A DNA stretch of 60,676 bases from Mycobacteriales bacterium (GTDB lineage Bacteria; Actinomycetota; Actinomycetes; Mycobacteriales; DASULA01). Of the stretch, positions 8,181-47,957 are shown piece after piece. The position numbers were made by a program, and so were the translations under genes. The stretch lies in assembly GCA_036278435.1 (NCBI GenBank), contig DASULA010000093.1, positions 1-60,676 on the forward strand, given 5' to 3'. The first letter of the stretch is position 1. Each line of letters begins with the position of its first letter. The notes under the pieces were generated by a model that saw only the letters and a list, made by a program, of their open reading frames with translations, made no database searches and was not told where the DNA came from.

Positions 8181-8190
8181 GAACTCATCG

Positions 8191-18811: not shown

Positions 18812-21079
18812 TCAGACCCGCACCGGGCTGGCCGTGACCGGGACCGGGTCGCCGGCCGCGTGCCCGGCCGCCCGGCCGCGGCCGGGCAGCCAGTCCAGCC
18901 ACGACGGCAGGTACCAGTTGTACCGGCCCAACGCCGACATGGCCGCCGGTAGGAGCACGCCGCGCACCACGGTGGCGTCGATCAGGATCGCCGCGGCCAG
19001 CCCCACACCAACCTGCTTGAACTCCAACATGGACAGCGTCGCGAAGACTGAGAACACAGCGGTCATGATGACCGCGGCACTGGTCACGGTGGACGCCGAC
19101 CGCAGCACGCCGTGCCGTACCGCGTCTACGGTGGGCAACCCGACCCGCACCGCCTCGCGAATCCGGCTCACCACGAAGATGTGGTAGTCCATCGACAGTC
19201 CGAACAGGACGACGAACAGGAACAGCGGGAGCCAGGTGACGATCCCCCCGTCGGAGCGGAAACCGAGCAGCCCCTGCGCCCACCGGTGTTGGAAGACCAA
19301 CACGAGCAGGCCGTAGGCGGCCCCGACGCTGAGCAGGTTCAGCACGATCGAGGTGGCCGCCACCACCACCGACCGGAACGTCAACAGCATCACCAGGAAC
19401 GTCAGGCCCAGCACGAACCCGAACACCAGCGGCAACCGACCGGCGATCTGCCGGCCGAAGTCCCGCTCACCGGCGGTCTGGCCGGTGACCCCCGACCAGG
19501 TGTGCGGCAGCCGGCCGAACGTCGCGGGCACCAACCGGTCCCGCAGCAGGTCCAACGACCTGCCGGCCCGCGAATCGTTGGCCCGGTAGGGGATGGGCAG
19601 GTCGAGGACGGCCACCCGCCCATCGGTGGAGAACCTGGGTACCCCGGCGGGGTCCAGGGCGAACAGGCCACTGGCCGAGGCCTGTCGGGACAGCGCACCG
19701 GCCGCAGTGGTCACCCCGGCCCGCGACAGCGGCGCCGGCCCGGTGGCGGTGACCACCACCTCGTGCTCGGCCCCCTGATCGGGGAACGCCGCGTTGAGCC
19801 GGTCGTAGGACCGCATGATCGGGATCGACCGGGGCAGGTCCGCGGTGCCGGGTAGCGCGGTCCGGAGCTGGAGCGCCGGCGCGGCCAGCGCGGCCATGGC
19901 CAGCGCGGCCAGCCCGAACGACACCACCGGGCGGCGTGACACCACCCTCAGGACCGCCGCCCAGGTCCGCGAGTACCGGACCCCGCCGGGTCGGCCGCCA
20001 CGGCCACGCAGCCGGTGGACCAACGGCACCCGGGGCCGTTCGATCCGCTCGCCGAGCAGGGCCAGCAGCGCCGGCAGCACGGTCACCGAGCCGGTCACGG
20101 CCACCGCGACCACGAGCATGGTGCCCACCGCCAACGAGGTGAACACCGCGTTGCCAGACAGCAGCAGGCCCGCCATCGCGATCAGCACGGTGATCCCGGA
20201 GATCACCACGGCCCGCCCGGAGGTGGCCGCGGCGATCTCGATGCTGTCCCGGCCGGACGCGCCGCGGGCCCGTTCCTCCCGTTCCCGCCGGATGTAGAAC
20301 AGCGAGTAGTCCACTCCCACCGCCATCCCGATCAGCAGCACCACGCTGGACGCCGCGTCGGCCAGCGGCACCAGATGGGAGGCCAGCGCGGACAGGCCCA
20401 TGGCCCCGGCCACCGCGGTCAACGCCAGCAGCACCGGCACTCCGGCGGCGAACAGCGCGCCGAACACGACCAGCAGGATGGCCAGTGTGACCGGAATGCT
20501 GGTGAGTTCGGCCCGCCTCAGGTCGTCGCCGGACTGGTTGCCGATCGCCCGGTCGATCGACGCGCCGCCAACCTGCTCGACTCGCAGGTCCGGGTGGTCG
20601 GCCTGCACCCGGCCGGTCGCGGCCAGCATCGGCCCGACCAACTCCTCGGCTCGGTCCGAGCTGGCCGACCCGGTGAGCGTGCCGGTGTCCAACGTCACCG
20701 TGACCAGTCGGCTGTGACCGTCCCGGGACGGCACCGGTTTACCGACCGGACCGATGCCGCGCAGGCCGGCGTAGTGGCGGGTCAGATCGGCGGTCACCGC
20801 GGTCACCTCGGCCGGGTCCAGGCTGCCGTGCCGGGCCTGGATGAGTACCGCCTCGGTCGGCTTGTCGCCGAAGTACGCGCCCTCGGTCGCCTTGTCGGCG
20901 ATCTTCGACTGGCCCGCCCCGGTGTCGACGCCCGACAGTTGCCGGTTGCCGGCGGCGCCGCCAGCCAGCACGGTGAGCGTCACGAAGAGCACCCATCCGG
21001 TCACCGCGGTCCACCGGTGCCGGGTACTCCACCTCGCCACGTTCAGCACAGGTCCAGAACCGGACCGGGTACGCGTCAT
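18812..21079 (-). CDS. MMPL-family (RND superfamily) membrane transporter
   Basis: Two 6-TM bundles with the duplicated MMPL pattern (VDYSLFY / MDYHIFV). Start taken at MTRTRSG (M18 of the tracked ORF). Confidence 0.85.
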   Translation of the reverse strand: MTRTRSGSGPVLNVARWSTRHRWTAVTGWVLFVTLTVLAGGAAGNRQLSGVDTGAGQSKIADKATEGAYFGDKPTEAVLIQARHGSLDPAEVTAVTADLTRHYAGLRGIGPVGKPVPSRDGHSRLVTVTLDTGTLTGSASSDRAEELVGPMLAATGRVQADHPDLRVEQVGGASIDRAIGNQSGDDLRRAELTSIPVTLAILLVVFGALFAAGVPVLLALTAVAGAMGLSALASHLVPLADAASSVVLLIGMAVGVDYSLFYIRREREERARGASGRDSIEIAAATSGRAVVISGITVLIAMAGLLLSGNAVFTSLAVGTMLVVAVAVTGSVTVLPALLALLGERIERPRVPLVHRLRGRGGRPGGVRYSRTWAAVLRVVSRRPVVSFGLAALAMAALAAPALQLRTALPGTADLPRSIPIMRSYDRLNAAFPDQGAEHEVVVTATGPAPLSRAGVTTAAGALSRQASASGLFALDPAGVPRFSTDGRVAVLDLPIPYRANDSRAGRSLDLLRDRLVPATFGRLPHTWSGVTGQTAGERDFGRQIAGRLPLVFGFVLGLTFLVMLLTFRSVVVAATSIVLNLLSVGAAYGLLVLVFQHRWAQGLLGFRSDGGIVTWLPLFLFVVLFGLSMDYHIFVVSRIREAVRVGLPTVDAVRHGVLRSASTVTSAAVIMTAVFSVFATLSMLEFKQVGVGLAAAILIDATVVRGVLLPAAMSALGRYNWYLPSWLDWLPGRGRAAGHAAGDPVPVTASPVRV

Positions 21080-21211
21080 TCGCTCCTCCTCGATGCGGCC
21101 GGACCCGAGCGGAGTCCGGTTGCGACCCACACGACGGTGCCGGATCGACGAAGCGCTGTCGGTGGTGTGACCACCCGTCTTCCGGTGGGGTTGACCCCAC
21201 CCGGCATTGGG

Positions 21212-22615
21212 ATGGACGCCTCATGGCTCCGGTGCCCGGCGGTGCCTACCGTGGACGTCGTGACTTCGACAGATGCCGCCGCGCCGGACCGGCCGGCCGC
21301 ACCGGACGGGCAGACCGGACGGTCCGGGCAGGCCGGGCCGACCCGGCAGACCGGGCGCCGGGTCGGGCTGGGCGCGGTGTTGCGCGGCCCCTGGTCGGCA
21401 TCGGGCTGGCTGGCCACGGTCCACGTGCTGGTCGGGTTCCCGATCTGCGTGACCGCGTTCGTGCTGATGGTGACGCTGGTGTCCCTGACGGCCGGGCTGG
21501 CGATCACCGCGATCCTGGCGGTGGTGCCGCTGCTGCTGCTGCTGGCCTCGGTGCGGGTGCTTGGCACGGTGCAGCGGTCCCGGTTCGCCGCGCTGCTGGA
21601 CGTGCGGATCGACCCGGTGCCGCCCCGGCGGGACGGGTCGAGCTGGTGGCGCCGGCTGGTCGCCGAGGCGCTCGCGGCGAGCACCTGGCGGCAGATCGGC
21701 TACCACCTGGTGTCGCTCCTCACCGGCACGGTCGGGTTCGCGCTGGTCACTTCGGTCTGGTCGGCCGGCCTGGTCGGCGTCACCGCGTTCGCGTACGGCT
21801 GGGTACTGCCCCGGCACGGCATCTTCGGCTGGGACATGCGCGCCCCGCTGATGCTGGCGGCGCTCACCGGCGTCGGGCTGGTGGTGCTGTTCGCCGCCCC
21901 CTGGGTGGCCCGGGGAGTGGCCGCGGTGGACGTGGCGCTGGCCTGGGCGCTGCTCGGGCCGAGCCGCGGCGAGCGACTGCGCGGCCGGGTGGCCTCGCTC
22001 ACCGAGAGCCGGGCCGGCGCGGTGGACGCGGCCGACGCCGAGCGCCGGCGGATCGAGCGCGACCTGCACGACGGCACCCAGCAGCGGTTGGTGTCCCTGG
22101 CGATGAATCTGGGCATGGCCCGGGCGAAGTTCACCGACGCCCCGGAACCGGCCCGCGACGCGATCGCCGCCGCGCACGAGGAGGCCAAGCAGGCCCTGGT
22201 CGAGTTGCGGGGATTCGTCAGGGGTCTGCATCCGGCGGTGCTCAACGACCGGGGTCTGGACGCGGCGCTGTCGGGCATCGCCGCCCGCGCGCCGTTGCCG
22301 GTGTCCCTGCGGGTGGAGGTGTCCCGGCGCCCGTCGCCGACCATCGAGGCGGTGGCCTACTTCGTGGTCTCCGAGGCGCTGAACAACGTGGTCAAGCACG
22401 CCGAGGCGTCCCGGGCGGACGTCACCGTGCGGCGCCTGGACGGCCTGCTGCGGGTGGAGGTCGCCGACGACGGCCGCGGCGGTGCCGGGCCCGACGGCGG
22501 CAGCGGCCTGCGCGGCCTGGCCCAGCGGGTGGCCTCGGTGGATGGCACCCTGCGCATCGACAGCCCGCCGGGGGTGGGAACCGTGATCGTGGTGGAGTTG
22601 CCATGCGAGTCGTGA
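21212..22615 (+). CDS. Sensor histidine kinase, HisKA_3 (LiaS/DesK-like) with N-terminal multi-TM sensor
   Basis: H-box ERRRIERDLHDGTQQRL plus a C-terminal HATPase_c domain (N, G1 and G2 boxes). Only the last ~467 codons of tracked ORF 20015..22615 are credible, because the 5' part is antisense to the MMPL gene. Confidence 0.8.
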   Translation: MDASWLRCPAVPTVDVVTSTDAAAPDRPAAPDGQTGRSGQAGPTRQTGRRVGLGAVLRGPWSASGWLATVHVLVGFPICVTAFVLMVTLVSLTAGLAITAILAVVPLLLLLASVRVLGTVQRSRFAALLDVRIDPVPPRRDGSSWWRRLVAEALAASTWRQIGYHLVSLLTGTVGFALVTSVWSAGLVGVTAFAYGWVLPRHGIFGWDMRAPLMLAALTGVGLVVLFAAPWVARGVAAVDVALAWALLGPSRGERLRGRVASLTESRAGAVDAADAERRRIERDLHDGTQQRLVSLAMNLGMARAKFTDAPEPARDAIAAAHEEAKQALVELRGFVRGLHPAVLNDRGLDAALSGIAARAPLPVSLRVEVSRRPSPTIEAVAYFVVSEALNNVVKHAEASRADVTVRRLDGLLRVEVADDGRGGAGPDGGSGLRGLAQRVASVDGTLRIDSPPGVGTVIVVELPCES

Positions 22616-35559: not shown

Positions 35560-35633
35560 GGGGCTGTAGCGCAGTCCGGTAGCGCACCTCGTTCGCATCG
35601 AGGGGGTCAGGGGTTCGAATCCCCTCAGCTCCA
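35560..35633 (+). tRNA. tRNA-Ala (anticodon CGC)
   Basis: Hand-folded: acceptor GGGGCTG/CAGCTCC with the G3:U70 Ala identity pair, anticodon stem CCTCG/CGAGG, loop TTCGCAT, T-arm AGGGG-TTCGAAT-CCCCT. No encoded CCA. Confidence 0.9.
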
Positions 35634-36121
35634 CGAAGTCAATGGGCGGCGTGTGCCCGCGGAGTAGGCGGGCCATGGTCGCCTTCGTTATTTGTGCTCG
35701 GCTTCGCCTCGCCGGGCGGGGGCTTTGCGACCCGCACCCCCATAGTGTCCGCGGTGGGTTGCCGGTCGGGGTTCGAGTTAGGTGTGGTCAGGGTCCACAA
35801 TCAGAGCCATGCCGGGCACCAGCCGCACCATCCTCGTCCAACTCATCAGCGAACTGGACACGCGCAGGCTGTCCTTCTACGGGATGCCAGCCCCGCTGCG
35901 TGTTCCCAACGACGCGCTGGGAGCATCCGGCGAACCCGTGCGTGTCCCGGTACCCAGCGGCACCATCACTCTCGATCCGAACGTCGAAGTCGTGCCGCTG
36001 CTCGTTGTCGCCAGCGCTAAGCACATCGCCGCCGTACCGCAGCGTCCAGGCCCGCGTGCGACGTCGCCGCGCCGAGAGCGACCGCATCGTGCCCTCACCT
36101 CGGCGGCTGACCTCCTGGATT

Positions 36122-36481
36122 ATGAGCAGACCCCAGGACCTGTCCGACAAACATCGTGCTCACCTCGGTGACCTCCTGGCTGCCTGCCCGGAGATGACTG
36201 CCCTGGTGGGCTTCGTCGGTGAGTTCGCCCAACTCATGGCCGAGCGGCGCGGCAGCGACCTCGACTCCTGGGCCGCACACGTCCGAGCAGCCGGACTGTC
36301 CGAGATGGCGCCCTTCCTCAACGGTCCCGAGGCAGACCACGACGCCGCCGTGGCCGGCCTGAGCGTGCCTCACAGCAACGGCCCGACCGAGGGCATCAAC
36401 ACCAAAACCAAGCTCATCAAACGACAGATGTATCGCCGCGCAGGCTTCCACCTCCTCCGCCACCGCATCCTGCTCCCATAA
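36122..36481 (+). mobile_element. ISL3-family transposase, C-terminal remnant only
   Basis: ...HSNGPTEGINTKTKLIKRQMYRRAGFHLLRHRILL is the conserved ISL3 C-terminus. The N-terminal two-thirds of a normal ISL3 transposase are absent, and the upstream part of tracked ORF 35642.. shows no transposase motifs. Confidence 0.7.
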
Positions 36482-36671
36482 CTCCCCGACCAGACGACCG
36501 GAAGCGAGCCAGAGCCAAACGTTTGACAGACCCCCGTCCCTCGCGATGCCATACACGCGCCCAGACTCGGCGTCACGACCGAGCCAGGCCGCCGGCACGC
36601 ACGGGCCCCGGGCCGAACGTTTGAGCCCAGTCAGTGTTGCGACTACCCTTCGGACCCGTGCAGTGCTCCAC

Positions 36672-37448
36672 ATGCGTATTGTCAGCGCCATGCATAAGGT
36701 GCCGAAGATCTCGGTTCAGATCCAGCCGCAGCACGTTCGTCTAGAGGCGCTTGTCGATGCCCTCGACGAGCTCGACGCGCTGCGGGTCGACACCATCTAC
36801 TGCTGGGACCATATTGGTCAGTTGTCGGGGAGCAGCAGTCTGCCGAGCCTGGAATGTTGGGCCTTGCTCGCGTCGTTGTCGCGCGTAACGTCGCACGTCA
36901 AGTTAGGTTCCCTGGTGAGCCCATACGGCTGGCGCAATCCTGAACTAATGGCGTACACGGCTGATACAGTCGATCGAATGTCGGGCGGCCGCGTTGTCCT
37001 AGGGATGGGTGCCGGCTGGCATGCGTCGGACTTTGAGCGGCTCGGCTTAGTCATGCCGGCCGGTGCCGCCCGCATCCGGGGCTTGCAATCAGCGCTGGAT
37101 CGCATCAGGGCTAGCCTCGACGCGTTGAAGTCCAGGGTGCCGGTGTTGATCGGTGGCTCAGGGCCCAAGTTGCTCGACGTTGTCGCGCAGCACGCCGACA
37201 TCTGGCATAGCAATCAGCAAGGTCCGGCCTGGGCCCGCGCCGCCGCAACGCTCGAACAAGCGTGTCACCGGCGCGGTCGCGACCCAAGAACCATTGTTGT
37301 GTCGGTGTCGCTTGGCGATAGCGATATCGACGCACTCGCGAAGGAGCACGAGATCGACTCGGTAACCGTCAACGTGGCCGGCCCCAGGTTCGATCTGCGC
37401 CGTGTCAGGGAGCTCGTGAGCTGGCGTGCGGGCGTGTTGAGTGGCTGA
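36672..37448 (+). CDS. LLM-class (luciferase-like) F420/flavin-dependent oxidoreductase
   Basis: KISVQIQPQH...VDTIYCWDH...GGRVVLGMGAGWH pattern. Start at ATG 36672 or 36690. Confidence 0.75.
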   Translation: MRIVSAMHKVPKISVQIQPQHVRLEALVDALDELDALRVDTIYCWDHIGQLSGSSSLPSLECWALLASLSRVTSHVKLGSLVSPYGWRNPELMAYTADTVDRMSGGRVVLGMGAGWHASDFERLGLVMPAGAARIRGLQSALDRIRASLDALKSRVPVLIGGSGPKLLDVVAQHADIWHSNQQGPAWARAAATLEQACHRRGRDPRTIVVSVSLGDSDIDALAKEHEIDSVTVNVAGPRFDLRRVRELVSWRAGVLSG

Positions 37449-37463: not shown

Positions 37464-38585
37464 TCATGCCAGCAGACCTCGCCACGCGTCTACCTGGTCA
37501 AGTATGGCGCAGTCGGGCACGGACGCAAAGTCGGCAGCTCTTCGCTGGACGGATCGTGAGTCAATGTCACCGTTCGACTCGATCGCGACCAATGCTGCCG
37601 ACAACACTAAGTAGGGGTCAGTCTGCTGCGCGGCTGAGGAGGTCACCCTGTAGGCGCGTAGGTCGGCAACGCTAACTTCGCCGTGAAGCACTGCATCTAG
37701 CACAGCGCGGATCTCCCTGGCGAGCGGGTAGCGGTCGCCGACCGACCCGGCCGTCTCGAAGCAAACGAACACGTCACCGTTGGTCGGCTCGAAGCGGACG
37801 GAGAGTCCATACCCGCCGGCACCGTAGCGAAAGCTCTCGTACAACCTTGGGACCGGGCCATAGACGAAAGCTCCGCACGCGATGGCAACGGCGCGCGCGC
37901 CCTCGTCCGTATCCACAGGCAATGAGAAGGCAACGCTGTTCCACACGCCCTTTCGGGCAAGTCGCTGCGCCGACCATCCCCCATCGAGCCTGTACCTGCG
38001 ACGGCAAGCACTCAGCGCACTGGTTCGATCAGCCTGTCCGTCGAGCCACCCATTGAATCGGCCGCCGAGACCAACCGGGGCTGGCCCGGCCACTCCGATC
38101 GCCCTCAGTACGGGCGCTAGGTCGGCGCATGCCCCCTCCGCTGCAATCGGCATCACCGTCAGACTCAGGCTGCGCCGGTCCTCGGGGTGGTAGAGCTTCC
38201 TTCTGGCCAACTGCTCTGTTCGGATCGGCGGCTGATGATCCGAACGTACCGCCGTCCCCAACTCGCCGTCGACAGATTCCCGGTAACCCTCGACGACCGA
38301 GGCCACCGTATCAACGATTCTCGGTGCATCACGGGGCAGACACTCAACGACCAGGTCAGCGTGGGCCCAGGCGATACTCCCTCTCACCGTCGCAGCTTCG
38401 GTGCAGAGAGCTCTGAGCAATCTTCCGCAGATGCGCCGCAGGAGCATCAGGCTGGCGCCGCGCTCACCGGCCTGCTCACCGAGGATCGAGAGTCCCAGCC
38501 TCAGGACGATGGTCGTCACGTGACAATGCGGAGTGACGAGACTTATCACTGGTATAGGCTGCTCCCGGTCTATTACCAGTCTCAC
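37464..38585 (-). CDS. M16-peptidase-like protein lacking the HxxEH zinc motif (probable non-catalytic partner subunit)
   Basis: Size and position suggest pairing with the M16 gene at 41925..43145. The place of HxxEH reads GASLMLLRRI. GTG at 38585 overlaps the MFS stop as GTGA. Contains an in-frame TTA codon at 37608-37610. Confidence 0.5.
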   Translation of the reverse strand: MRLVIDREQPIPVISLVTPHCHVTTIVLRLGLSILGEQAGERGASLMLLRRICGRLLRALCTEAATVRGSIAWAHADLVVECLPRDAPRIVDTVASVVEGYRESVDGELGTAVRSDHQPPIRTEQLARRKLYHPEDRRSLSLTVMPIAAEGACADLAPVLRAIGVAGPAPVGLGGRFNGWLDGQADRTSALSACRRRYRLDGGWSAQRLARKGVWNSVAFSLPVDTDEGARAVAIACGAFVYGPVPRLYESFRYGAGGYGLSVRFEPTNGDVFVCFETAGSVGDRYPLAREIRAVLDAVLHGEVSVADLRAYRVTSSAAQQTDPYLVLSAALVAIESNGDIDSRSVQRRAADFASVPDCAILDQVDAWRGLLA

Positions 38586-39868
38586 CGGGCGGTCACTTCG
38601 GTCCGCGACACCGAGTTGTCGAGCGTCCAAATGCTGCTCAGTGCTAACGGTAGGAAGCCGGCGACGAGCAGCGCTAGCCCGGCACCGACGAACAGCGGCC
38701 GCAGGCCGATGTGGCTGGCGAGGGAACCCGCGCCGACATAAGCGAGCGGTACGACGGCGAGCTGCCCGGAGTTCGATAGGCCGAAGATTCGACCCTGGAT
38801 TTCGCCGGAGAAGCTTGTCTGAAGGAGAACGGTGAACGACACGATACTTACGTCAAGCGCGACGCCAGTCATTGCTGTGGCGACGCAGATCAACCAGATC
38901 CCGTCCCAGTTCAATGCTAACGCGAACATTGGAAACGCCATCACACCTGTGGCGACGCACATTGCGACACCGGTCCGACTGGGCTGCCAGCGAACAAGCA
39001 AGAATGATCCCGTGATCATGCCTCCAGCGAAGCTGCTGGAAATCAAGCCCCAAGAGCTCGCGCCGCCCAAGCTTTCGTAGGCCTCAGTGGGACCGAGCAG
39101 CTGGAACCCGATGAGCCATACGAGCGTGCCGACAGCTCCCTGAAGCACCAACACTATGAGCCAGCCGTGCGACCGGAACTCCGACCAACCCTGCAGGAAG
39201 TCAGCGGTCGCTCGCACCCGATTGGTCTGCCTGCCCTGCTGCCTGTTCCCAGTCATCGCCAGCACTCGCAGTAGCAAAGCCGCGAGCAGGAAGGAAGCAC
39301 CATCCAAAGTAATGACCGAGGCGGGGCCCACCATACCGACGAGCCACCCGCCTAGCGCGGGGGCAACAAACTTGGTGACGCTGAAGCTCATCCGCAGCGC
39401 TGCTGTCGCCGTGACCAGGTCCTGCCGGGGGACCAGATCGCGCAGCACTCTTTGATATGCGGGAGCGAAGATCGCCGATCCGGAGCCGGTGATCGCCGCG
39501 CCGACCAGCAGGTACACGAGGGACTGGTACCAAAGCAGGCTAGCCGCGACGCCGAATTGGGACACGGCGACAACGACGTCGACAAGAACGATGAGCCGAA
39601 AACGCGGCAGGCGGTCGCACAAGACGCCTGCCGCAGGCATGAGCAGCGCCTGCGGTATCGCACTACACATTAGGACTAGACCCAGCGCTGTAGGTGATCC
39701 GCTTATGCGCAGAGCGCCGAAGGCAAGCGCGATAGTCGCCATTCCTGAACCGAACAGCGACACGGTTCGTGCTAGCGCGTAGCGGCGGTATGTGCCGTTA
39801 TTGCTCAGCAGCAGAAAGCGCCCGCGCATGCTTGGGAGTGCTTCCTTGGAGCCTGCGTAGTCAGCCAT
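38582..39868 (-). CDS. MFS transporter
   Basis: About 12 hydrophobic spans; 428 aa. Confidence 0.85.
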   Translation of the reverse strand: MADYAGSKEALPSMRGRFLLLSNNGTYRRYALARTVSLFGSGMATIALAFGALRISGSPTALGLVLMCSAIPQALLMPAAGVLCDRLPRFRLIVLVDVVVAVSQFGVAASLLWYQSLVYLLVGAAITGSGSAIFAPAYQRVLRDLVPRQDLVTATAALRMSFSVTKFVAPALGGWLVGMVGPASVITLDGASFLLAALLLRVLAMTGNRQQGRQTNRVRATADFLQGWSEFRSHGWLIVLVLQGAVGTLVWLIGFQLLGPTEAYESLGGASSWGLISSSFAGGMITGSFLLVRWQPSRTGVAMCVATGVMAFPMFALALNWDGIWLICVATAMTGVALDVSIVSFTVLLQTSFSGEIQGRIFGLSNSGQLAVVPLAYVGAGSLASHIGLRPLFVGAGLALLVAGFLPLALSSIWTLDNSVSRTEVTAR

Positions 39869-39877
39869 CGCCAGCCC

Positions 39878-41161
39878 TCACGCGGGGCGGCGCAACACGC
39901 CTAGACTGCACAAGACCCGTGCGACGCGGGCGGCCGCTTCGAATCCGATGCCCGGAAGCTCGGTCAGCGTGAAAGGTTCAACTTGCGTGCACAACTCCCG
40001 GCACGCCGCGACAGCAGGACGGCTCTGCAGTACCAAGCCACCCATGTCGGAAATTAGCAAAGCGGCCGTGGAATCGAATTCGAACAGTGGAAGAGGTACC
40101 GGGAGCGCGCGCGTCAGCACGGATTGCTGCGAGAGTTCTTGGCCTGGCTCCCGGTCGGTTAAACTGGTTTCCAGATAGGGCCGAGCGCTCATGAACATGC
40201 CTGCCGTCGTCAGGGCCGATAGGGTCGGCGCGTCTAGTGACACAACGAGCGCTGCGGTCTCGCCGAGGTAGCGTTCAAAACTCGCATCGCTTGTCGCCGC
40301 GTTCGTACGCTGCAGTACACCGCGCAAATTCTTGATGGTGTCGACGACAGCATTCCTCAGTAAATCCTCCTCTTGTTCGACTCGGACGCCGACAGTCAGA
40401 TGCAGCGAGTCGTTCGTGGTCGTCCGTGCCGCATGCTCCGTATTCCGTGGAAGGAACAGAACGTCACCTTCAGCCAGATCAATCACGGACGAGCCCATAC
40501 TTGGTACACTCCATTGCTTCGAGCCGCGCAACTGAACGACGACGACATCGTGCGGGTCCCGGTGCAAGTCAAATCCCTGATGCCCGCCGGCACGAGTGGC
40601 GTAGACGTTTGCGTGACAAGACCCTCGCATCACCCATGCCAACTGGCGGCACAAGAGCCCTACCGCCCGGCGGTAACGCTGGACCCCTTGCAAGATGATT
40701 GTCGCCCCAGCGAAATATAGGTCGCGGACCGCCCTTGGATCTGGCGCTCCGTCGACCAGCAGGTGTACTTGGTGGTCGATACCGGCCGAGTTTGCAGCTG
40801 ATCGGGCCAGGGGCCGCAGATACCTTGTCGGCTCCACAGTTTCGCCGTCCTTGGCGAGTCGGAAGTGCGCGGGCCGCAGCAGCTGCCCGAAGATGAGGGC
40901 GTCCACGTCCGGCCAGTCGAGCAGGTCGAAAAATGAGCCACGTTCTCGATGCACAACCGGCCCGTTGCTGGCCATCACGTTCTGCTCGAGATCGAGTCCA
41001 AGCCGGCGGGGCTGCCAGTCTTCACAGCGGTGGAACGGTCCCAACCACTCGAGCCGCGGGCGTTCCTCGCTGGCGACCGCGAGCTGCTTCAGCGTCGTGT
41101 GCACTGATTCAGTGACGGAAAGGTCGTCAGTGACGCGCGCGAGCCCAGCCGGCTTCATCAC
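39878..41161 (-). CDS. JmjC/cupin-4 family Fe(II)/2-oxoglutarate-type oxygenase
   Basis: GFDLHRDPHDVVVVQLRGSKQW...GDVLFLPRNTEHAART gives an HxD...H facial triad in the cupin-4 (ribosomal-oxygenase-like) arrangement. Confidence 0.7.
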   Translation of the reverse strand: MMKPAGLARVTDDLSVTESVHTTLKQLAVASEERPRLEWLGPFHRCEDWQPRRLGLDLEQNVMASNGPVVHRERGSFFDLLDWPDVDALIFGQLLRPAHFRLAKDGETVEPTRYLRPLARSAANSAGIDHQVHLLVDGAPDPRAVRDLYFAGATIILQGVQRYRRAVGLLCRQLAWVMRGSCHANVYATRAGGHQGFDLHRDPHDVVVVQLRGSKQWSVPSMGSSVIDLAEGDVLFLPRNTEHAARTTTNDSLHLTVGVRVEQEEDLLRNAVVDTIKNLRGVLQRTNAATSDASFERYLGETAALVVSLDAPTLSALTTAGMFMSARPYLETSLTDREPGQELSQQSVLTRALPVPLPLFEFDSTAALLISDMGGLVLQSRPAVAACRELCTQVEPFTLTELPGIGFEAAARVARVLCSLGVLRRPA

Positions 41162-41928
41162 CGCAGCCTCGCAGACATGAAGCGCGCTCCGCGATGGATG
41201 GTCAGTTGATCTTGATGTTCGGCATCGCGCGCAAGTTCAATAGTCGTCGCTCTGAACTCGTCGGCCGCGTGATCTGGCAGGCTCTCAACAAACCCACGTA
41301 GGCCATGGCTCATCTCTGACTCCCAGAAGTCAATCGGACTCGCGTACGTTACCGGGACCGAGACCGCCGTGACACGTACACTGTCGAAGCCTGCGTCGGT
41401 CAACTGCGGCACGAGGGTTTTGACGTTATGGGTCTCCCACACGCCCGGCAGTCGAAAGTCCGCGAAGCGTGCGATTAGGTCGCCGTATCCCGGTAGCTCG
41501 CCTTTTGGTGCAGTAGCGGGAGTCGATACGCCCACGATGCCTCCGGGTTTGAGAATGCGAGCAACTTCGAGAATGCATGCGTCGACATCCGTCGCGAAGT
41601 TGACCGCGAAGCCGAGGAATGCATAATCGAAGCTGGAGTTTCGCAACGGCAAGTGGGTCAAGTCGCCACGCACAACGCGACGCAGCCCGGCGGCTCTGGA
41701 TTTCGTTGTCATGCCGGAAGATAGGTCGCAACCAACGACTCGCGCTCGCCGGCGCCGGAGCGCGCCGCTGAGACCGATTGCACCGCGTCCACAGGCGAGA
41801 TCCGCGATCCATGCGTCGTCGCGCGGATCGACCCACTCAACAAGTGCCTCTCCGAGCGGCGGAAAAAACGGGACCTCCCCGTACCGATCCGACACCTTAT
41901 CGAATAGCGCCAGTACCTGAGAGTTCAC
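41158..41928 (-). CDS. Class I SAM-dependent methyltransferase
   Basis: IADLACGRGAIG motif I, VVGCDLS motif II. GTG at 41928 follows GGGAGG and overlaps the M16 stop as GTGA. Confidence 0.8.
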   Translation of the reverse strand: MNSQVLALFDKVSDRYGEVPFFPPLGEALVEWVDPRDDAWIADLACGRGAIGLSGALRRRRARVVGCDLSSGMTTKSRAAGLRRVVRGDLTHLPLRNSSFDYAFLGFAVNFATDVDACILEVARILKPGGIVGVSTPATAPKGELPGYGDLIARFADFRLPGVWETHNVKTLVPQLTDAGFDSVRVTAVSVPVTYASPIDFWESEMSHGLRGFVESLPDHAADEFRATTIELARDAEHQDQLTIHRGARFMSARLR

Positions 41929-43145
41929 GGTCGCCTCCCGCTGTGGTGGAAGATACCGACCGCTCCGCCACAGGTGAGAGCGACGGCAGCACATGTCAAA
42001 TTCCCGAGCTGGTTCCGGATGTCTGCTGCCGTCGTCCGGCGCAACTGGTGGACGTCACTGATCGGGTGCTGGGCTGCGCAGCCGCGAGCCGCGCGACCGG
42101 CCAGTTCGTCAGCCAGCGCCCCTGGACGCGATGCCTTCGACAAGATCTCAAGGGTCAGACCCCGCACCGCCGCAAGGTGAAGGGCTGCGAATTGACGATC
42201 GTCTTCGAGCAACTCGACCCATCTCCGTTGGACGTTCGCGGTGAAGCTTACACGGTGCTCATTGGGAAGCTGTCGAAGATCGAGTGCAATCAAGCTACCG
42301 TACCGGTCGGCCGGATAGTGCACGATTCGGCACGGGGCTATGTCCCGTTCCTGTGCCGCGTAGTCGCGAAGCATCCGAACTAGCACAGCGCTGGCGAGGA
42401 ACTGGGTCGAATCGCGCGCCGGGAAAGTCAACGCTGAGCATCGGTCATGGGTCCGCTGTGTATCGGTAACGCGGTCGTTCGAACCGCCGTTTACATCAGT
42501 GTTCAGCGCCGCACTGATGCGGTCGACCACACTTGAGAAGGATTCAGCGGTTACTATCGCGATCGTCAGCCGCTGCGCCCTGCAGCACCTTCGGACGAAG
42601 GCGCCGAGCTGGGCCGGCGTGGGTGCGGCATCGGCGTACGCCGGTCGCAGCGGAGCGCTATGGTAAGGATGAGTGGCTGGCCACGTCGCCCTCAGCAACC
42701 GGGGGTACAGGTCGCCGTCAGGACCTAGAGTTTGCATAAACCATTCGTCGTCGATGACTGCGCGCTCGCGTTCCAAGGATAGCGCGTTGACGCGCAGGCA
42801 ACCGCTCAGCCACCCAGTTGTGCGCTGTAGGCGCAGAAGCCGTCCCAGCATCTGGGCTGACACGTAACCGGAAAAGCGCATGCGGTCCACGGAGGTAGAT
42901 GCCCCCCAGCCGGGACACTCGGCGGCGACGGACGAGGGCAGGGCAGCCGTGCCTGCAGCGAACAGCAGGTGCTCGCTCAAGTGAGCAGCTCCCGCCTCCG
43001 ACGGTCTGTCCTCCTCTCGGGACCCAGCTTCGAAGTGCATTGCCACAGCCATCGGGTTCGCGTCGGGGCGATGCGCCCACACCACCCTCGTGCCCGTATC
43101 AAGACTCACCGCGCGACATCTCGGAGCGACGTCGGCGCTAGCCAT
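41925..43145 (-). CDS. M16-family (insulinase-like) zinc peptidase with an intact HxxEH motif
   Basis: FEAGSREED.PSEAGAAHLSEHLLF contains HLSEH. Start taken at MASADV (ATG 43145), overlapping the TfuA stop by 8 nt. Confidence 0.75.
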   Translation of the reverse strand: MASADVAPRCRAVSLDTGTRVVWAHRPDANPMAVAMHFEAGSREEDRPSEAGAAHLSEHLLFAAGTAALPSSVAAECPGWGASTSVDRMRFSGYVSAQMLGRLLRLQRTTGWLSGCLRVNALSLERERAVIDDEWFMQTLGPDGDLYPRLLRATWPATHPYHSAPLRPAYADAAPTPAQLGAFVRRCCRAQRLTIAIVTAESFSSVVDRISAALNTDVNGGSNDRVTDTQRTHDRCSALTFPARDSTQFLASAVLVRMLRDYAAQERDIAPCRIVHYPADRYGSLIALDLRQLPNEHRVSFTANVQRRWVELLEDDRQFAALHLAAVRGLTLEILSKASRPGALADELAGRAARGCAAQHPISDVHQLRRTTAADIRNQLGNLTCAAVALTCGGAVGIFHHSGRRP

Positions 43146-44481
43146 CGGCGGGCTCGTCGCGACGAAGCGACCAGAGGTAGAAGTAGCGTAACACCTCCGC
43201 CGCACCATCCGCGCTGTCGAAGCCTCGATCGCGCGCGGCCGCGTCGAGTTCGTCCGGACGGTCGATTATGTCCCAGAGTCCGACCAGCCGAGCTCGCAGC
43301 CGATCGGCCCGCAGATGGTGCACGCTACGACCAGGGTCGCTGGCGCTCGCTGCTCGACTGATCTCTAGCGCGTCGGCGACCCTAAGTGCTAGATCATCGT
43401 CGATCGCCTCATTCCACAGGATCTTGGAAAGGGGCCAGTCAGGCGCTGCCGGCGAGCTTCGGCACGAACGAACCAACAGTCGGGTCATGCACTCGTGTGA
43501 AGGCAGGTTCGTTAACTCCATCTCGGTTAACCAGAATCTCTTCTGTTCTGCGTCGAGCGACTCCCACGCGAGTCCGCGCTCGTTCGCTCGATGCACTGCC
43601 GCGAGCTCCACGTCCATGTCGATGAACCCGCGCGAGTCGCCGATGTCGGCGATCCAGCGCAGCACGAACCGGCGCCAGGCCGCGGCGAACGACGCGTCGA
43701 ATAGTTGCCGAAACTGCATGGCAGCCAGCCGCGGCACCCTGCGTCCATCGGACGTAGTCAGTGCCTGATAGCGCCGCAGCCAGTGCTGCAGGTACGTAGT
43801 GCGCCATGACCCCCAGTCGGCACTGCGCCCATCCGACTGTAGCTCGCCACGCCGGACGGCGCGAAGACATGCCAACGCATCCGCCCGTTTGCCGAGTTGC
43901 TGGTTCGACGGCTGCGCTACCCAGGCCCAAAAGTTCTCGAAGCGGGGACCGGACAACATTGACCGAAGTCGATGGGGCGTTCGATCGAGGTAATGGAGCG
44001 AACGGGCTGCCTCGACGACGTCGATCGCCTGTCTCTGGGTCAACACACCTGCACCGAGTGCAGCCTGCGTGCTGATCCGGACGTCGACAAGGGGCGTCGT
44101 CGTCTGCCGGAACCCGTGGTCAGCATCTGCGTGCGCTACCGCCACCTCGTCGTCACCATCGATCTCTTGAGTGGCATACATTTCGTATACCGATCCGAAA
44201 CCGATCATCCCGAATGCTGACAGCTCGGCGGCTCTAAGCGCACCCATGCTGCTACAGCCAATCACCGTGGTACCCGCGTCAAGACAGTGCAGGATCTCCT
44301 TGTGACGCACGGGTGCTGTCTGGTGAAACAGGCCGTCGATGATGACGATTATATCAGTCGCCTTGGGCTCGAGAGCGAGCAGGTCTCCATGCTGGATTGG
44401 CGGCAGCAGGGTGGCTCGGGGCAGATGGGATGCGACCTCGTCGCTTGCGAGGGTCGGGCCTGCAAACACGAAGGTGCTCAT
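43138..44481 (-). CDS. TfuA-like protein (long actinobacterial form)
   Basis: MSTFVFAGPTL.........LLPPIQHGDLL......IIVIIDGLFHQTAPVRHKEIL..LDAGTTVIGCSSMGALRAAEL..FGM.G.G.VY is the TfuA domain. ATGA overlap with the YcaO stop. Confidence 0.85.
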   Translation of the reverse strand: MSTFVFAGPTLASDEVASHLPRATLLPPIQHGDLLALEPKATDIIVIIDGLFHQTAPVRHKEILHCLDAGTTVIGCSSMGALRAAELSAFGMIGFGSVYEMYATQEIDGDDEVAVAHADADHGFRQTTTPLVDVRISTQAALGAGVLTQRQAIDVVEAARSLHYLDRTPHRLRSMLSGPRFENFWAWVAQPSNQQLGKRADALACLRAVRRGELQSDGRSADWGSWRTTYLQHWLRRYQALTTSDGRRVPRLAAMQFRQLFDASFAAAWRRFVLRWIADIGDSRGFIDMDVELAAVHRANERGLAWESLDAEQKRFWLTEMELTNLPSHECMTRLLVRSCRSSPAAPDWPLSKILWNEAIDDDLALRVADALEISRAASASDPGRSVHHLRADRLRARLVGLWDIIDRPDELDAAARDRGFDSADGAAEVLRYFYLWSLRRDEPADG

Positions 44482-45752
44482 GCCTCAGTTCCACATTCGG
44501 GGCGCGGGATCTCGTGCCGAGCCGTATACTCCGTTTTGGGCGCGATGACCCGGACCACCGCAAACTCCGGTTCGGTGCTGAGATCTACGACAATCGGCGA
44601 CACACGTGACCCACATTCGAGTCGAGCTGTCGCCCATTGCAGTTCGGCTTCATCCGTTTCAAGGCCATCCTGACACCTTGCAACATCCGGCCACGATATC
44701 AGTGAGGCGCGCAAACTTGGTGCCCGATAGCGGCCATTCGGCATTCGGTAGACCAGTGGACTGATGTCGTCGCGGGTACCCACAATGAAAGTGACTCTGC
44801 TTTGCGCTGCCTCGGTTATGGCCCGGGAGAGCGCGACCGCGGATGAAGAGTGTGCGCCCGAGCCGACTACCATCGCGCCGCCAAAGAAGGGACACCATAG
44901 GTAGCAAACATAGCAAGGTACACCAAATGGGTTCGGGGCACTCACGATCTCTACCCATGCATCCGCGGCGTGAAGGCGCCTGAGGAGTTCCCGGCAATGC
45001 GGATCATCTACCGTCTCAGGATCAATGTAAGTGCGCTCGTGTACACCGACGCGGCCAAGTCGGCTGGTGGCATCACGTTCGATGATCTCGTAGATCGCGT
45101 GGGTGGTGGCCTCAGCGAGCGTATTGCCCGACGCCAAGCCATTGCTTGACGCAGTAAGCATCCATACCCGCCAGTCACGGGAGATGTCGCGGCCCATCTG
45201 TACGGCTTCGCGCGGAACTAGGACGGTCCGGCCTGTAGCAAATTCGACGCCTTCGATCCAATCGAGCAATGCCTCGTCGGTTAGCAAGCTCCCAGCGTGC
45301 TGCTGCAGATCGCGCACCGCGTACGGCAAATCAAGCTCTCCGGCCGGCGTGTCGGTGAGGACTGCTTGCGGGACGGCGCGTTCCGCATGCCAGAGTTCGA
45401 TGGACTCCATCGCAGCGGAAACCCTGGCGGACGCCTTGTCGATTCCCTTGCCCTGCGACACTGTCAGGGTCGTCGCCAGCGGTCGGACAGCCATTACTAC
45501 CGGTATGTCGAGAATGTCGAGGCCCGTTACATCAGCCAGTCGGGTTAGTCGGTACTTCTGAAACTTCGGGGCGACGATATCGAATGTCTCGGCAGGGGAG
45601 CGCACCCGGTGTGTGCCATCGAAATATGTCTTCTTCACGATTCCGTCGCAGTCGTTGTGATGACCCATGACGCCCGGGAGGGCGGCACTGGATACCGCCA
45701 CTCCCGGGCAGATTTCACACGTCGTATACCGCGACGTCGAAGAATGCGACAT
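44478..45752 (-). CDS. YcaO-family ATP-dependent amide-activating enzyme (TfuA-associated type)
   Basis: KKTYFDGTHR, SQGKG, ESIELWHAE, SSNGLASGN, EAxxHAIYEIIERD, EAAQSR and GTRDD motifs. The start is ambiguous: 45752 overlaps the precursor ORF by 38 nt, while the ATG at 45668 leaves a 46-nt gap. Confidence 0.9.
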   Translation of the reverse strand: MSHSSTSRYTTCEICPGVAVSSAALPGVMGHHNDCDGIVKKTYFDGTHRVRSPAETFDIVAPKFQKYRLTRLADVTGLDILDIPVVMAVRPLATTLTVSQGKGIDKASARVSAAMESIELWHAERAVPQAVLTDTPAGELDLPYAVRDLQQHAGSLLTDEALLDWIEGVEFATGRTVLVPREAVQMGRDISRDWRVWMLTASSNGLASGNTLAEATTHAIYEIIERDATSRLGRVGVHERTYIDPETVDDPHCRELLRRLHAADAWVEIVSAPNPFGVPCYVCYLWCPFFGGAMVVGSGAHSSSAVALSRAITEAAQSRVTFIVGTRDDISPLVYRMPNGRYRAPSLRASLISWPDVARCQDGLETDEAELQWATARLECGSRVSPIVVDLSTEPEFAVVRVIAPKTEYTARHEIPRPECGTEA

Positions 45753-45876
45753 CGGGCACAGTGGCGTCGCCGCCTTGGTTCTGCGGCATCACTCCGTCGT
45801 CGAAGAGCTTCATGACGAAGTCTTGATCACTTAGCTCGACCGGGTCCGCCGTAGCCTCGGGGTCAACACTGCTCAT
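45715..45876 (-). CDS. Candidate RiPP precursor peptide (53 aa, or 55 aa from the ATG at 45882)
   Basis: Below the track length cutoff, so hand-translated: (MT)MSSVDPEATADPVELSDQDFVMKLFDDGVMPQNQGGDATVPDVAFFDVAVYDV. GGGAGG (45885-45890) lies 8 nt upstream of ATG 45876. Sits between the oxygenase pair and YcaO on the same strand. Confidence 0.6.
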   Translation of the reverse strand: MSSVDPEATADPVELSDQDFVMKLFDDGVMPQNQGGDATVPDVAFFDVAVYDV

Positions 45877-45911
45877 GGTCATCACCTCCCCTCAGTGGAA
45901 TCGTCGCCGCT

Positions 45912-46541
45912 CTAGTCGAGGGCGAAGTAACAGATGGTCGCGAGAATGCCCAGGTCTTCTGTCTCGAAAGGTGAACGCCAGTGCGGAATGTTGAACCCAT
46001 CGAAAGCCATGACGGTGCCTTGAGTAAGCGGCATCGTCGACGATGTCTGCGGAAAATCACCACGCTGGCTAAGCTCCTCTATGAGCGCGGAATTGGACAA
46101 CCCACGTAGTTCCGGAAGCCAGCCCATGATCCCAAGGTTGTCGGTAACCGCGATTGACAGGGTGACGGTGCATTTGAAGTCGTCGCGGTGGGCGGCCATG
46201 AAGTCGCCAGCCCGATAATATTTGTATCCCATTCGAGTTGGCACGATGATGTCGGATCGAAGGGCAGTACGGACAATGTCGATCAACGAGCGATCGTGTG
46301 CCATAGCCTTGAGCGCCGGACCGGCCCGATGTGCTCGACACCTTTGCGCGGAGGACAGCCCGCCCTCGCGGTGGGCCTTCCACCCGACCGCCGTGTTGAT
46401 TCGGTCGAAGGCCTCCGTCTCGAAGGATCTCGCTTCGTCCAACAGCGCCCGAGACCGCGACATGTCGAGCACACCTTGCACCTGAAAATGGCCATCACGC
46501 TGCCATGCCGCCGCAACGTCGGCGAGCGCCATGCTGGTCAT
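45912..46541 (-). CDS. Small HxD...H oxygenase-like protein (putative Fe(II)/2OG-dependent), paralog B
   Basis: GYKYYRAGDFMAAHRDDFKCTVTLSIAV ... FDGFNIPHWRSPF. Collinear with the upstream paralog. The start overlaps the upstream stop as ATGA. Confidence 0.55.
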   Translation of the reverse strand: MTSMALADVAAAWQRDGHFQVQGVLDMSRSRALLDEARSFETEAFDRINTAVGWKAHREGGLSSAQRCRAHRAGPALKAMAHDRSLIDIVRTALRSDIIVPTRMGYKYYRAGDFMAAHRDDFKCTVTLSIAVTDNLGIMGWLPELRGLSNSALIEELSQRGDFPQTSSTMPLTQGTVMAFDGFNIPHWRSPFETEDLGILATICYFALD

Positions 46542-47176
46542 AGGTCGAAGTAGCAGCAGTTGGCGAGCAGGCCAAGGTCCGACTCGAACGGCTTGCGCCA
46601 GTGCGGTACGTTATATCCGTCGAAAGCGACGATCGTCCGATGGGGCATGGAGATTGACGTCCCGACTTTTGCGGGAAAGATGCCATCTTCGGCGACCGTA
46701 GCAGCCAGTTTGTCGTTAGATGCGAGACGCAATTCGGGTGCCCAGTGCAGGCCGTCGAGATTCGGTGTCACGGCAAAGTTGAGAGTGACTGTGGCCTTTA
46801 CCGAATCGCGGTGCAGGCCGAGATAGTCGCCCGGACCATAGTAGTTGTATCCGCACCGAACGGGAATTAGCCGTGGCATGCCGACTGCTCGCCGGACGGC
46901 TTCGAGGAACTCAATCGACCGATGCAAGCGGCGAAACACTGTCCCACCCTGAACGCTGTGAAAGCGGGCAGGTGTAGCAAAGCTGCCGTCTCGATGCGCT
47001 GCGACCTGCTCGAAGCCGTTGCTGTTAGCCTCCTCGCGCAGCGCGAGGGCTTCCTTGAGCAGCGCCTCCCATGTCTCGTCTGAGAGTTCGATCTTGAGGT
47101 CGGCGGTAGCCGTCTCGTCCCACTGTTGCTTGGTCATGCCGCTCCACAACGCCGCCAACGTAACCAATTCGGACAT
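46538..47176 (-). CDS. Small HxD...H oxygenase-like protein (putative Fe(II)/2OG-dependent), paralog A
   Basis: GYNYYGPGDYLGLHRDSVKATVTLNFAV ... FDGYNVPHWRKPF. Start at ATG 47176 (or 47137, after GGAG). The 5' 119 codons of tracked ORF 46538..47533 look non-coding. Confidence 0.55.
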   Translation of the reverse strand: MSELVTLAALWSGMTKQQWDETATADLKIELSDETWEALLKEALALREEANSNGFEQVAAHRDGSFATPARFHSVQGGTVFRRLHRSIEFLEAVRRAVGMPRLIPVRCGYNYYGPGDYLGLHRDSVKATVTLNFAVTPNLDGLHWAPELRLASNDKLAATVAEDGIFPAKVGTSISMPHRTIVAFDGYNVPHWRKPFESDLGLLANCCYFDL

Positions 47177-47957
47177 CCGGATGATAGCCAAATATAGAAC
47201 GAGTTGGAAGCCCCGGGTCCTACTGGATATTGCGTCCCATCTGCCTTGGGTGTCGAAGTATCTGACCGGCCAGCTTGAGCCGCTGACCGCAGTACAGGGG
47301 CCTGCCAGGGCGATGCAGGGCCCCGGCGTGAGGTCTACATGAATGAGGTGTGGCGTGCCCGCTGTTGCATTGTCCCGCGTGGGTGCGCAGGTGGTCGCAT
47401 CCGGTCCCGAAGGCGAGAACCTGGCCGCCGGCGCGTGGCGGCGGCTGGAGTCGCTGCCCGATCCGCGTTCAGCGTCATGCCGACCCCACCGATCCAGACC
47501 GCCTGGCTTAGGGGCAACGGATCCAGGGCACATCTTCCTTCACCGGTCACTTCCTCGCCCACGGCGACAACATCGCCTGCTCATAGCAACGTCAGACCAG
47601 ACCGCCGGCGCACGGTCGTCGGTGGTCTGGGGCGGGCCGCCACGCACCACGGCGCACTCTCACAGCGATCGTGAGGTGCCTGCGTATCGCCTCCTGGCCC
47701 CCGCGGTGACCGGAGGAGGACTCCTGGAACCACGATCGACCGCCGTCCCGTGGCCGGATGCTGGAACGGGCGGCCCACCACCCGCGTAGGGTTCGCCACG
47801 GTCGCCGGGCTGTTGGCGTTCGCGCACCGGCACCGCCGGAGCCCGGACGGGTGAGAGCGGATGGCTCAGGGCAACCACATCGAACGTGGTGGTCGGTACG
47901 GTGCGGTGAGGCGGGCAGTCATGTGATCTACAAGTTCGAAGAGGGCGAGGGGATCAG

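Follow-up and report, generated by a model that had tools for sequence, protein, structure and literature searches.

A YcaO-TfuA operon with a conserved Cys-free peptide and paired small oxygenases on a genomic island of a Mycobacteriales bacterium probably represents an uncharacterised family of thioamidated ribosomal peptides

The window analysed here is a stretch of 60,676 bp, the complete contig of a metagenome-assembled genome (MAG) named "Mycobacteriales bacterium" (locus tags VFX70_044xx). Between positions 37,464 and 47,176 it contains ten open reading frames (ORFs), all co-directional on the minus strand, at the coordinates claimed in an earlier reading of the sequence (the original prediction), where they had been described as an operon for a peptide that is made on the ribosome and modified after translation (RiPP), built around a YcaO-TfuA pair. 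The genes and features of this operon are given below in the direction of the minus strand; loci outside the window carry L numbers.

46538-47176, minus strand: OxyA, predicted 212-aa 2-oxoglutarate (2OG)/Fe(II) oxygenase, first gene of the operon, HRD...PHWR motif kept
45912-46541, minus strand: OxyB, predicted 209-aa 2OG/Fe(II) oxygenase, paralogue of OxyA, HxD...H, assigned from the structure model
45715-45882, minus strand: precursor gene, 53-55 aa, M(TM)SSVDPEATADPVELSDQDFVMKLFDDGVMPQNQGGDATVPDVAFFDVAVYDV, assigned from a GGAGG upstream and from homologues
45671-45710, minus strand: RNA hairpin (about 18 bp) in the gap from the precursor stop to the YcaO start, from folding against shuffled sequences
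44478-45668, minus strand: YcaO, ATP-dependent backbone-activating enzyme, start ATG 45668 or GTG 45638
43138-44481, minus strand: long TfuA, 447 aa, TfuA domain (PF07812, NF033432) followed by about 230 aa that form a conserved C-terminal domain
43141-43851, minus strand: the TfuA C-terminal domain itself, also present at L065 8807-9574, L070 3299-4051, L072 4040-4744 and in L001-L013
41925-43145, minus strand: M16 zinc peptidase, candidate leader peptidase (PF00675, 2e-5)
41158-41928, minus strand: class I S-adenosylmethionine (SAM) methyltransferase (Methyltransf_11, 1e-16; UbiE/BioC-like NCBIfam matches below cutoff)
39878-41161, minus strand: JmjC_2/cupin-4 2OG oxygenase (PF08007, 2e-16, H-R-D...H triad)
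38582-39868, minus strand: exporter of the major facilitator superfamily (MFS), MFS_3/EntS-like (MFS_1 2e-29, MFS_3 1e-20, TIGR00900 3e-49)
37464-38585, minus strand: last gene of the operon, 373 aa, GTGA-coupled to the MFS gene

The junctions between these genes were read base by base. Start and stop codons overlap as ATGA at 46538/46541 and 44478/44481, as GTGA at 41925/41928, 41158/41161 and 38582/38585 (the last of which couples the final gene to the MFS gene), and by 8 nt at 43138/43145, with a TAG stop and an ATG start; the gap from the JmjC gene to the MFS gene is 9 nt only. The ten reading frames, in the order OxyA-OxyB-precursor-YcaO-TfuA-M16-methyltransferase-JmjC-MFS-unknown, are all intact and tightly coupled, and the catalytic motifs are kept (HxD...H twice, HRD...H, HxxEH plus E). 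The ORF coordinates and all six overlaps therefore bear out the claim of ten same-strand genes in a single operon. The ten operon genes and ten flanking genes were scanned against Pfam and NCBIfam, and these scans, together with PDB searches, agreed with the identities originally assigned to YcaO, TfuA, the M16 peptidase, the SAM methyltransferase, the JmjC protein and the MFS exporter.

The short ORF can start at 45882, giving 55 aa, or at 45876, giving 53 aa, and the latter start is better spaced from the GGAGG. The peptide has no Cys and no repeats, and its core is acidic and contains Pro. A word-indexed search of 5.8 billion proteins retrieved the peptide itself only, as the sole member of its 90% cluster, and for this reason the homologues of the short peptide were reached via the neighbouring oxygenase. 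They were found at seven loci including the window (L060-64, L065, L069, L070, L072 and L073) and share the motif [FY]-[LIV]-x-x-[LM]-[FH]-x-x-G-x-x-P-(5)-D-A-[AT]-[VI]-P-D-x-x-[FI]-x-[DE]-x-x-V-[YF]. In a codon alignment, the conserved residues are encoded by synonymous codons (GAC/GAT, GCC/GCG/GCT, GTG/GTA/GTT, CCC/CCG/CCA), and a Shine-Dalgarno site stands ahead of most copies. The motif, the synonymous variation and the Shine-Dalgarno sites across the seven loci support the proposal that this ORF encodes the precursor, and it appears to be a real, conserved gene. Cys is absent in 7/7 precursors and the Ser/Thr residues of the core are not conserved, which argues against azoline chemistry.

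Two further contigs carry an ORF of interest at this place. At JGI 3300067032 a 53-aa ORF lies in the precursor position; it is known by position only and stands outside the seven-locus count. At L071 there is a degenerate precursor copy with an in-frame stop. This truncated form (ending ...VPDY-stop) was considered as a minimal core and rejected: the motif runs on past the in-frame TAA (..EDAVVF), a start codon is not evident, and a degenerate copy or a sequencing error is more likely. A regular expression for the leader motif, run over L001-L059, matched no short ORF.

Between the precursor stop and the YcaO start, the hairpin of the window has a folding energy of -37.4 kcal/mol (z = -5.2), and 0/200 shuffles fold as well. 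Equally strong hairpins of unrelated sequence (z -4.6 to -5.8) stand at the same position in L060 (1236-1340), L072 (2156-2256) and L073 (1670-1800), while L069 has a weaker hairpin (z -1.9) and none is seen in L065. The element is conserved by position, not by sequence.

OxyA and OxyB are paralogues at 36% identity. Orthologues of OxyA with 42-56% identity are found at L060, L065, L069, L072 and L073; since the homologues are 200-210 aa long, the start at 47176 was preferred over an upstream ATG at 47533. Against Pfam and NCBIfam the two proteins gave nothing even at E<=10 except unrelated DUFs, and an oxygenase profile run against the PDB sequences found ectoine hydroxylase at 4e-3 only. An exhaustive hidden Markov model search of 1.84 billion representatives yielded 196 oxygenase cluster representatives, 24 of them below 1e-30. 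In an alignment of 63 homologues H118 and H187 never vary and D120 is kept in at least 90%, and the AlphaFold2 model of OxyB built from this alignment reached a predicted local distance difference test score (pLDDT) of 96.6; a model of the oxygenase from 3 sequences (pLDDT 49.7) was discarded. With the OxyB model, Foldseek returned SnoN (5ep9) as the top match (E 3e-10), together with BesD, HalA and HalB (TM 0.73-0.76) and P4H/PHD2. There were 532 PDB matches at E<=1e-3, and the best 50 of the 532 are all 2OG oxygenases, with TM up to 0.76. Judging from the modelled fold, OxyA and OxyB are 2OG/Fe(II) oxygenases with a double-stranded beta-helix and an HxD...H triad, in a family without a Pfam model, and their earlier description as two paralogous HxD..H oxygenase-like proteins stands.

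SnoN/SnoK, BesD/Hal and prolyl-4-hydroxylase have the same double-stranded beta-helix and HxD...H iron triad, but identity to OxyA and OxyB is just 10-18% and the latter are much smaller (~205 aa). Compared with the SnoN/BesD group, the substrate of OxyA and OxyB is presumed to be a peptide instead of a sugar or a free amino acid. Because the triad Asp is retained, enzymes of hydroxylase/oxidase type are expected, and no halogenases. The PhyH Pfam model matched, below threshold (4e-4), in one protein only, P0021 of L066 (713 aa, genome GCA_005795905.1, 8.4 Mb). In this natural fusion protein, encoded beside YcaO, a TfuA domain is joined to an oxygenase domain of the OxyA/OxyB family, which is independent evidence for a joint function of these oxygenases with TfuA/YcaO. 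At L066 (8820-12142) YcaO is followed by P0021, and a 32-aa ORF with a Shine-Dalgarno site (MNHDEVFAMFDELDAAVAKALGSGTFVACSAE) lies just upstream; this locus may be a related system, here in a genome assembly that is larger and more complete. More distant relatives of the oxygenases are fused to short-chain dehydrogenase/reductase (SDR), methyltransferase, JmjC or sulfotransferase domains. The distant fusions inspected (methyltransferase-oxygenase and JmjC-oxygenase) sit outside YcaO contexts, and only the close subfamily appears to be tied to YcaO-TfuA/RiPP-type loci. At L078 (711-2511), the oxygenase homologue P0012 adjoins a protein with weak NicX/CgnE_B (crocagin-type) Pfam matches and a 68-aa ORF, and enzymes of the oxygenase family may have a part in other RiPP-like pathways too.

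The YcaO domain was recognised at 1.1e-60 (PF02624) and 2e-55 (TIGR00702). TIGR03266, the model of the type that thioamidates McrA glycine, gave 170 bits as compared to 82 for SagD, and the closest solved relative is the thioamidation YcaO MJ1094 of M. jannaschii (6PE3/6PEU, 3e-26), with cyclodehydratases at ~1e-7. On these scores the window YcaO appears much nearer to the archaeal thioamidation YcaO than to the cyclodehydratases. Its identity to the YcaO proteins of the family loci is 42-61% (at least 50% in L060, L065, L067 and L073), and to those of 59 loci from GTDB representative genomes 35-48%. TfuA directly adjoins YcaO, its start overlapping the YcaO stop, and scored 7.7e-42 with PF07812 and 4e-50 with NF033432. 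Its C-terminal domain, with the motifs WRTTYLQxW, YRQLYDxxFPxxWRR, LLVRSC and AAARDRGF, is kept in L065, L070, L071 and L072 and is also found in long TfuA proteins at Amycolatopsis, Lentzea, Streptomyces and Nonomuraea loci. Profile searches of this domain in Pfam, NCBIfam and the PDB gave no match; it may be a module that recognises the peptide or docks a sulfur carrier.

Loci L060-64, L065, L070, L072 and JGI 3300067032 are independent metagenomic and MAG contigs, and the metagenome scan used a 10-sequence oxygenase alignment. The expected recurrence of the gene set around homologous short peptides was observed at the seven loci, where the peptide gene stands beside YcaO/TfuA and the oxygenase pair. 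The gene orders, which vary, are as follows: in L060/61, helix-turn-helix (HTH)-M20 peptidase-OxyA-OxyB-precursor-YcaO-TfuA; in L065, cupin-SDR-OxyA-OxyB-precursor-YcaO-TfuA (546 aa), with a convergent JmjC gene; in L070, precursor-oxygenase-YcaO-TfuA-oxygenase-YcaO2-JmjC-methyltransferase-MFS; in L072, OxyB-OxyA-precursor-YcaO-TfuA-JmjC-MFS; in L071, TfuA...oxygenase-precursor (degenerate)-methyltransferase-MFS; and in JGI 3300067032, short ORF-YcaO-TfuA-oxygenase-oxygenase-methyltransferase. The family core is made of two oxygenases, the precursor, YcaO and a long TfuA, and JmjC, methyltransferase and MFS genes are frequent additions. The second YcaO of L070 (4812-6023), which follows the second oxygenase, is 47% identical to the window YcaO and hints at extra backbone chemistry in that variant. 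Among the 59 loci of GTDB genomes a few have JmjC or MFS genes and none has the oxygenase pair, the M16 gene or the precursor, although the scan patterns derived from the window YcaO and absence from cultured genomes is thus unproven.

The accessory set of the original prediction held only in part, in that the JmjC, methyltransferase and MFS genes recur whereas the M16 peptidase and the tenth gene are specific to the window. In the M16 peptidase HLSEH lies at residues 76-80 and E155, within ERAVIDDE, at the canonical distance, and with both elements present its active site is complete; its PDB matches are MPP-beta and PqqL. It was not found at any related locus inspected and, being seen in the window only, is no hallmark of the family. 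Methyltransferases are also present at L070, L071, L076 and JGI 3300067032. The PDB matches of the JmjC protein are the NO66/MINA53 protein hydroxylases, and its homologues stand beside TfuA at L070, L072 and L065, and also at L006, L007 and L057. MFS genes occur at L070, L071 and L072 as well. The last gene gave no significant family or structure match (Pfam, NCBIfam, PDB), no similarity to the M16 gene by BLASTP, and no homologue in any related locus inspected. Its best score with Pfam M16_C was E=0.29 (11.4 bits, cutoff 23), so that its earlier description as M16-like was not confirmed.

The surroundings of the operon include three features that bear on its origin:

35560-35634, plus strand: tRNA-Ala(CGC), island boundary (ARAGORN, Rfam)
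35642-36481, plus strand: truncated ISL3 transposase (DDE_Tnp_ISL3, 3e-9)
36546-37448, plus strand: luciferase-like (LLM, F420/FMN-type) oxidoreductase (PF00296, 2e-24), convergent with the operon

The GC content drops from 0.72-0.84 to 0.56-0.69 across ~35.5-47.95 kb, a 12-kb block that spans the whole operon and begins right after the tRNA-Ala(CGC) gene and the ISL3 fragment. GC at third codon positions (GC3) is at most 0.74 in the operon genes, as compared to 0.87-0.93 in the adjacent flanking genes. Considering composition, tRNA and insertion sequence together, the block is best read as a genomic island acquired horizontally from a donor of lower GC; L070 and L072 have a GC content of ~56-57%. 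An att-type direct repeat of the tRNA-Ala 3' end was not found at the far border of the island. The LLM gene has a GC3 of 0.74, like the island and unlike the flanks, and a 32%-identical LLM protein is encoded near YcaO in L059; it could be an eleventh gene of the cluster, its membership being uncertain. Just upstream of the OxyA start (47177-47230, minus strand) the sequence (TTCTATATTTGGCTATCATCCGG-ATG) is unusually rich in A and T and has a TANNNT-like hexamer only some bases ahead of the ATG; this stretch could be the promoter of a leaderless transcript. Scans with promoter and terminator consensus sequences gave counts no higher than in shuffled sequence. Elsewhere in the window, positions 1-15000 have a GC content of 0.66-0.69, below that of the middle of the contig, and end near tRNA-Arg(CCT) (14972-15045); they may be a second compositionally distinct segment. 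Two long ORFs on opposite strands, 18812-21130 (minus, 772 aa) and 20015-22615 (plus, 866 aa), overlap and both have coding-like GC3, and therefore they are not both full-length genes.

Taken together, these results are read, with a probability of about 0.7, as an intact RiPP operon on a horizontally acquired island, whose peptide of ~53 residues, acidic in character, is probably converted into a thioamidated, hydroxylated product. The locus would represent an uncharacterised family within the YcaO-TfuA thioamidated RiPPs, with the chemistry of its product deduced from homology. Thioamidation is the known role of the YcaO-TfuA pair in the McrA system and in the thioamitide, thiovarsolin and thiopeptin pathways. 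The substrate would be the ~53-aa peptide, whose conserved gene adjoins those of the enzymes, with the N-terminal F-x-x-L-F-D-x-G serving as leader and D-A-[AT]-V-P-D...V-Y as core. As family knowledge suggests, YcaO would use ATP to activate the backbone at one amide or several, and TfuA would deliver the sulfur, giving thioamide(s). OxyA and OxyB, the products of an old duplication that persist as two orthologous groups, would then act oxidatively on side chains of the invariant core; since they keep the HxD triad, hydroxylation is the likeliest reaction. In the version of the window, the JmjC-type oxygenase and the SAM methyltransferase may decorate the peptide further, the M16 zinc peptidase would cut the leader and the EntS-like MFS pump would export the product. 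The probable role of the hairpin is to stabilise the transcript of the precursor or to attenuate read-through, which would lead to an excess of peptide over the enzymes. The product is predicted to derive from the ...DATVPDVAFFDVAVYDV region of the precursor.

Several points weigh against this interpretation. Every chemical step in it is an extrapolation from homologous proteins, and the leader (~F-x-x-L-F-D-x-G) and the core (from D-A-A-V-P-D onward) are a guess from the pattern of conservation. With the NCBIfam thioamidation models, YcaO and TfuA score under the curated equivalog cutoffs, which is expected for non-archaeal members and is no proof of function. The operon has neither a ThiS-like sulfur-carrier gene nor a recognisable RiPP recognition element (RRE). 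The YcaO of L060 is frameshifted and its TfuA has no C-terminal domain; together with the stop in the L071 precursor, this frameshift and short TfuA indicate that some members of the family may be decaying. Moreover, the M16 gene and the tenth gene occur in the window only, and a role for them in the pathway is weakly supported.

Different explanations of the locus have to be weighed against these data. A known thioamide RiPP class (thioamitide, thiovarsolin or thiopeptin-type thiopeptide) might have gone unrecognised, given that the YcaO-TfuA pair is common to all of them and that thioviridamide-type (thioamitide) clusters also include an oxygenase and a methyltransferase. However, the precursor has neither Cys, repeats nor a Ser/Thr-rich core, the hallmark genes are absent from the operon and its flanks, and the precursor motif is absent from the parts of the RiPPER peptide tables and from the full-text literature searched; we leave this explanation only a minimal chance. 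It is also conceivable that YcaO-TfuA acts on a larger cellular protein, in the style of McrA or ribosomal uL16, that the JmjC and 2OG enzymes are protein hydroxylases and that the short ORF is not the substrate. The JmjC_2 relatives NO66 and MINA53 do hydroxylate ribosomal proteins, and YcfD, another JmjC_2 relative, hydroxylates a ribosomal protein. One report describes YcaO thioamidation of uL16 in Pseudomonadota (PMC13063428). Nevertheless, whatever the arrangement, the short ORF varies together with the enzymes and its motif is under purifying selection, an exporter and a peptidase are within the operon, and the whole set lies on a foreign, patchily distributed island with no housekeeping context. 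A cellular protein as substrate is therefore very unlikely.

The chemistry itself may differ from thioamidation: YcaO could form an amidine or macrolactamidine, or only activate the backbone for the oxygenases, with TfuA, for example, recruiting the substrate. YcaO enzymes are versatile and produce azolines, amidines (streptamidine, PMC8442711) and thioamides. Such a function would be in keeping with the 230-aa C-terminal domain of TfuA, which has no known match, and with the absence of a ThiS-like carrier from the operon. On the other hand, all characterised adjacent YcaO-TfuA pairs make, to our knowledge, thioamides, the YcaO of the window resembles the archaeal thioamidation YcaO far more than it does the cyclodehydratases, and sulfur carriers are commonly encoded elsewhere, so that we consider a different chemistry rather unlikely. 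Finally, the foreign composition, with a tRNA gene and the truncated ISL3 transposase alongside, and the frameshift or in-frame stop in some relatives would also fit a cluster that a mobile island carries along, silent or decaying, and that makes nothing. The ten intact, coupled frames, the preserved catalytic motifs and the intact precursor with its Shine-Dalgarno site speak against this, and we give it little credence.

If the locus is, as we favour, an intact thioamidated RiPP operon, three pieces of it are new, namely the precursor, the mini 2OG-oxygenase pair and the recurrent long TfuA. A stronger claim can be made, that the acidic D-A-A-V-P-D...V-Y core, thioamidated and oxidised by the mini 2OG pair, defines a new structural RiPP class, in which the C-terminal domain of TfuA recognises the peptide and the product is a metallophore; this is tentative, and we regard it as doubtful. 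Its metallophore component, suggested by thioamide, hydroxy-acid and carboxylate groups and by the EntS-like exporter, is speculation. The characterised thioamide ribosomal peptides are few, and the known ones are bioactive (antitumour thioamitides, thiopeptins). A fixed and simple core, acidic and free of Cys, is tractable for mapping how YcaO-TfuA chooses backbone sites without azole or aminovinyl chemistry. An oxygenase family without a Pfam model, presumed to act on peptides, is a new enzyme resource, and the 230-aa appendage of TfuA may explain substrate recognition in YcaO-TfuA systems that have no RRE. Since nearly all members come from metagenomes or MAGs, the operon of the window, with all ten genes intact, offers a practical template for synthesis and for expression in a heterologous host, and the family is a good target for mining and experiment.

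As concerns known systems, the original prediction had held that the hallmarks of thioamitides and thiopeptides are missing and that the family is possibly uncharacterised, in which case no characterised cluster should match it. Both statements are supported, the former by the domain scans and the Cys-free precursor, the latter by those hallmark comparisons and by literature searches without a match. Pfam and NCBIfam scans of the operon and its flanks gave neither a LanD-type/HFCD flavoprotein decarboxylase nor a phosphotransferase/HopA1-type lyase. The scans likewise gave no split Lan-type dehydratase, [4+2] pyridine synthase or azole-forming cyclodehydratase/dehydrogenase, and neither a heme-oxygenase-like gene nor an amidinotransferase in operon or flanks. 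The precursor motif is not among the peptides listed in the parts of the RiPPER supplementary tables that were searched, and no relevant paper on it was found in the full-text literature searched, most subscription journals being outside that scope. In the same literature no paper has the combination of TfuA, YcaO, M16 and JmjC, and nothing similar was found in two large TfuA mining studies (their supplements in part) or in the recent YcaO/TfuA papers searched.

The thioamitides (thioviridamide, thiostreptamide S4; PMC8153245) are similar to the locus in combining YcaO-TfuA thioamidation with oxidative and methyl tailoring of a ribosomal peptide. However, they have an HFCD decarboxylase and a phosphotransferase/HopA1-type lyase pair, neither of which the window locus has, and their cores are hydrophobic and Ala/Val-rich, whereas that of the window is acidic and contains Pro; because its precursor has no Cys, no aminovinyl-cysteine (AviCys) would be formed. 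The thiovarsolins of Streptomyces varsoviensis (PMC6511847) are, likewise, actinomycete YcaO-TfuA RiPPs with an MFS gene, but their repetitive core, the heme-oxygenase-like VarO and the amidinotransferase are all three absent from the window locus. Thioamidated thiopeptides have a Cys/Ser-rich core, in contrast to the core without Cys found here. The archaeal YcaO-TfuA system that thioamidates a glycine of McrA (PMC5589413) provides the best solved-structure and NCBIfam relatives of the window YcaO and TfuA, and therefore the ATP- and sulfide-dependent chemistry is presumably the same; its substrate is a large enzyme subunit and, unlike the window, it has no tailoring, protease or export genes. 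The nearest likeness is to actinobacterial YcaO-TfuA RiPP families that are uncharacterised and are listed in the RiPPER study (Santos-Aberturas et al., 2019, PMC6511847) and in a global survey of TfuA (Malit et al., 2021, PMC8120280). Dozens of such orphan families are already catalogued, so that the existence of one more is not surprising. In the closest genome loci TfuA comes before YcaO, whereas in the window YcaO is followed by TfuA; as in the window locus, the catalogued families have an adjacent YcaO and standalone TfuA, a short precursor of the unannotated type and variable tailoring genes.

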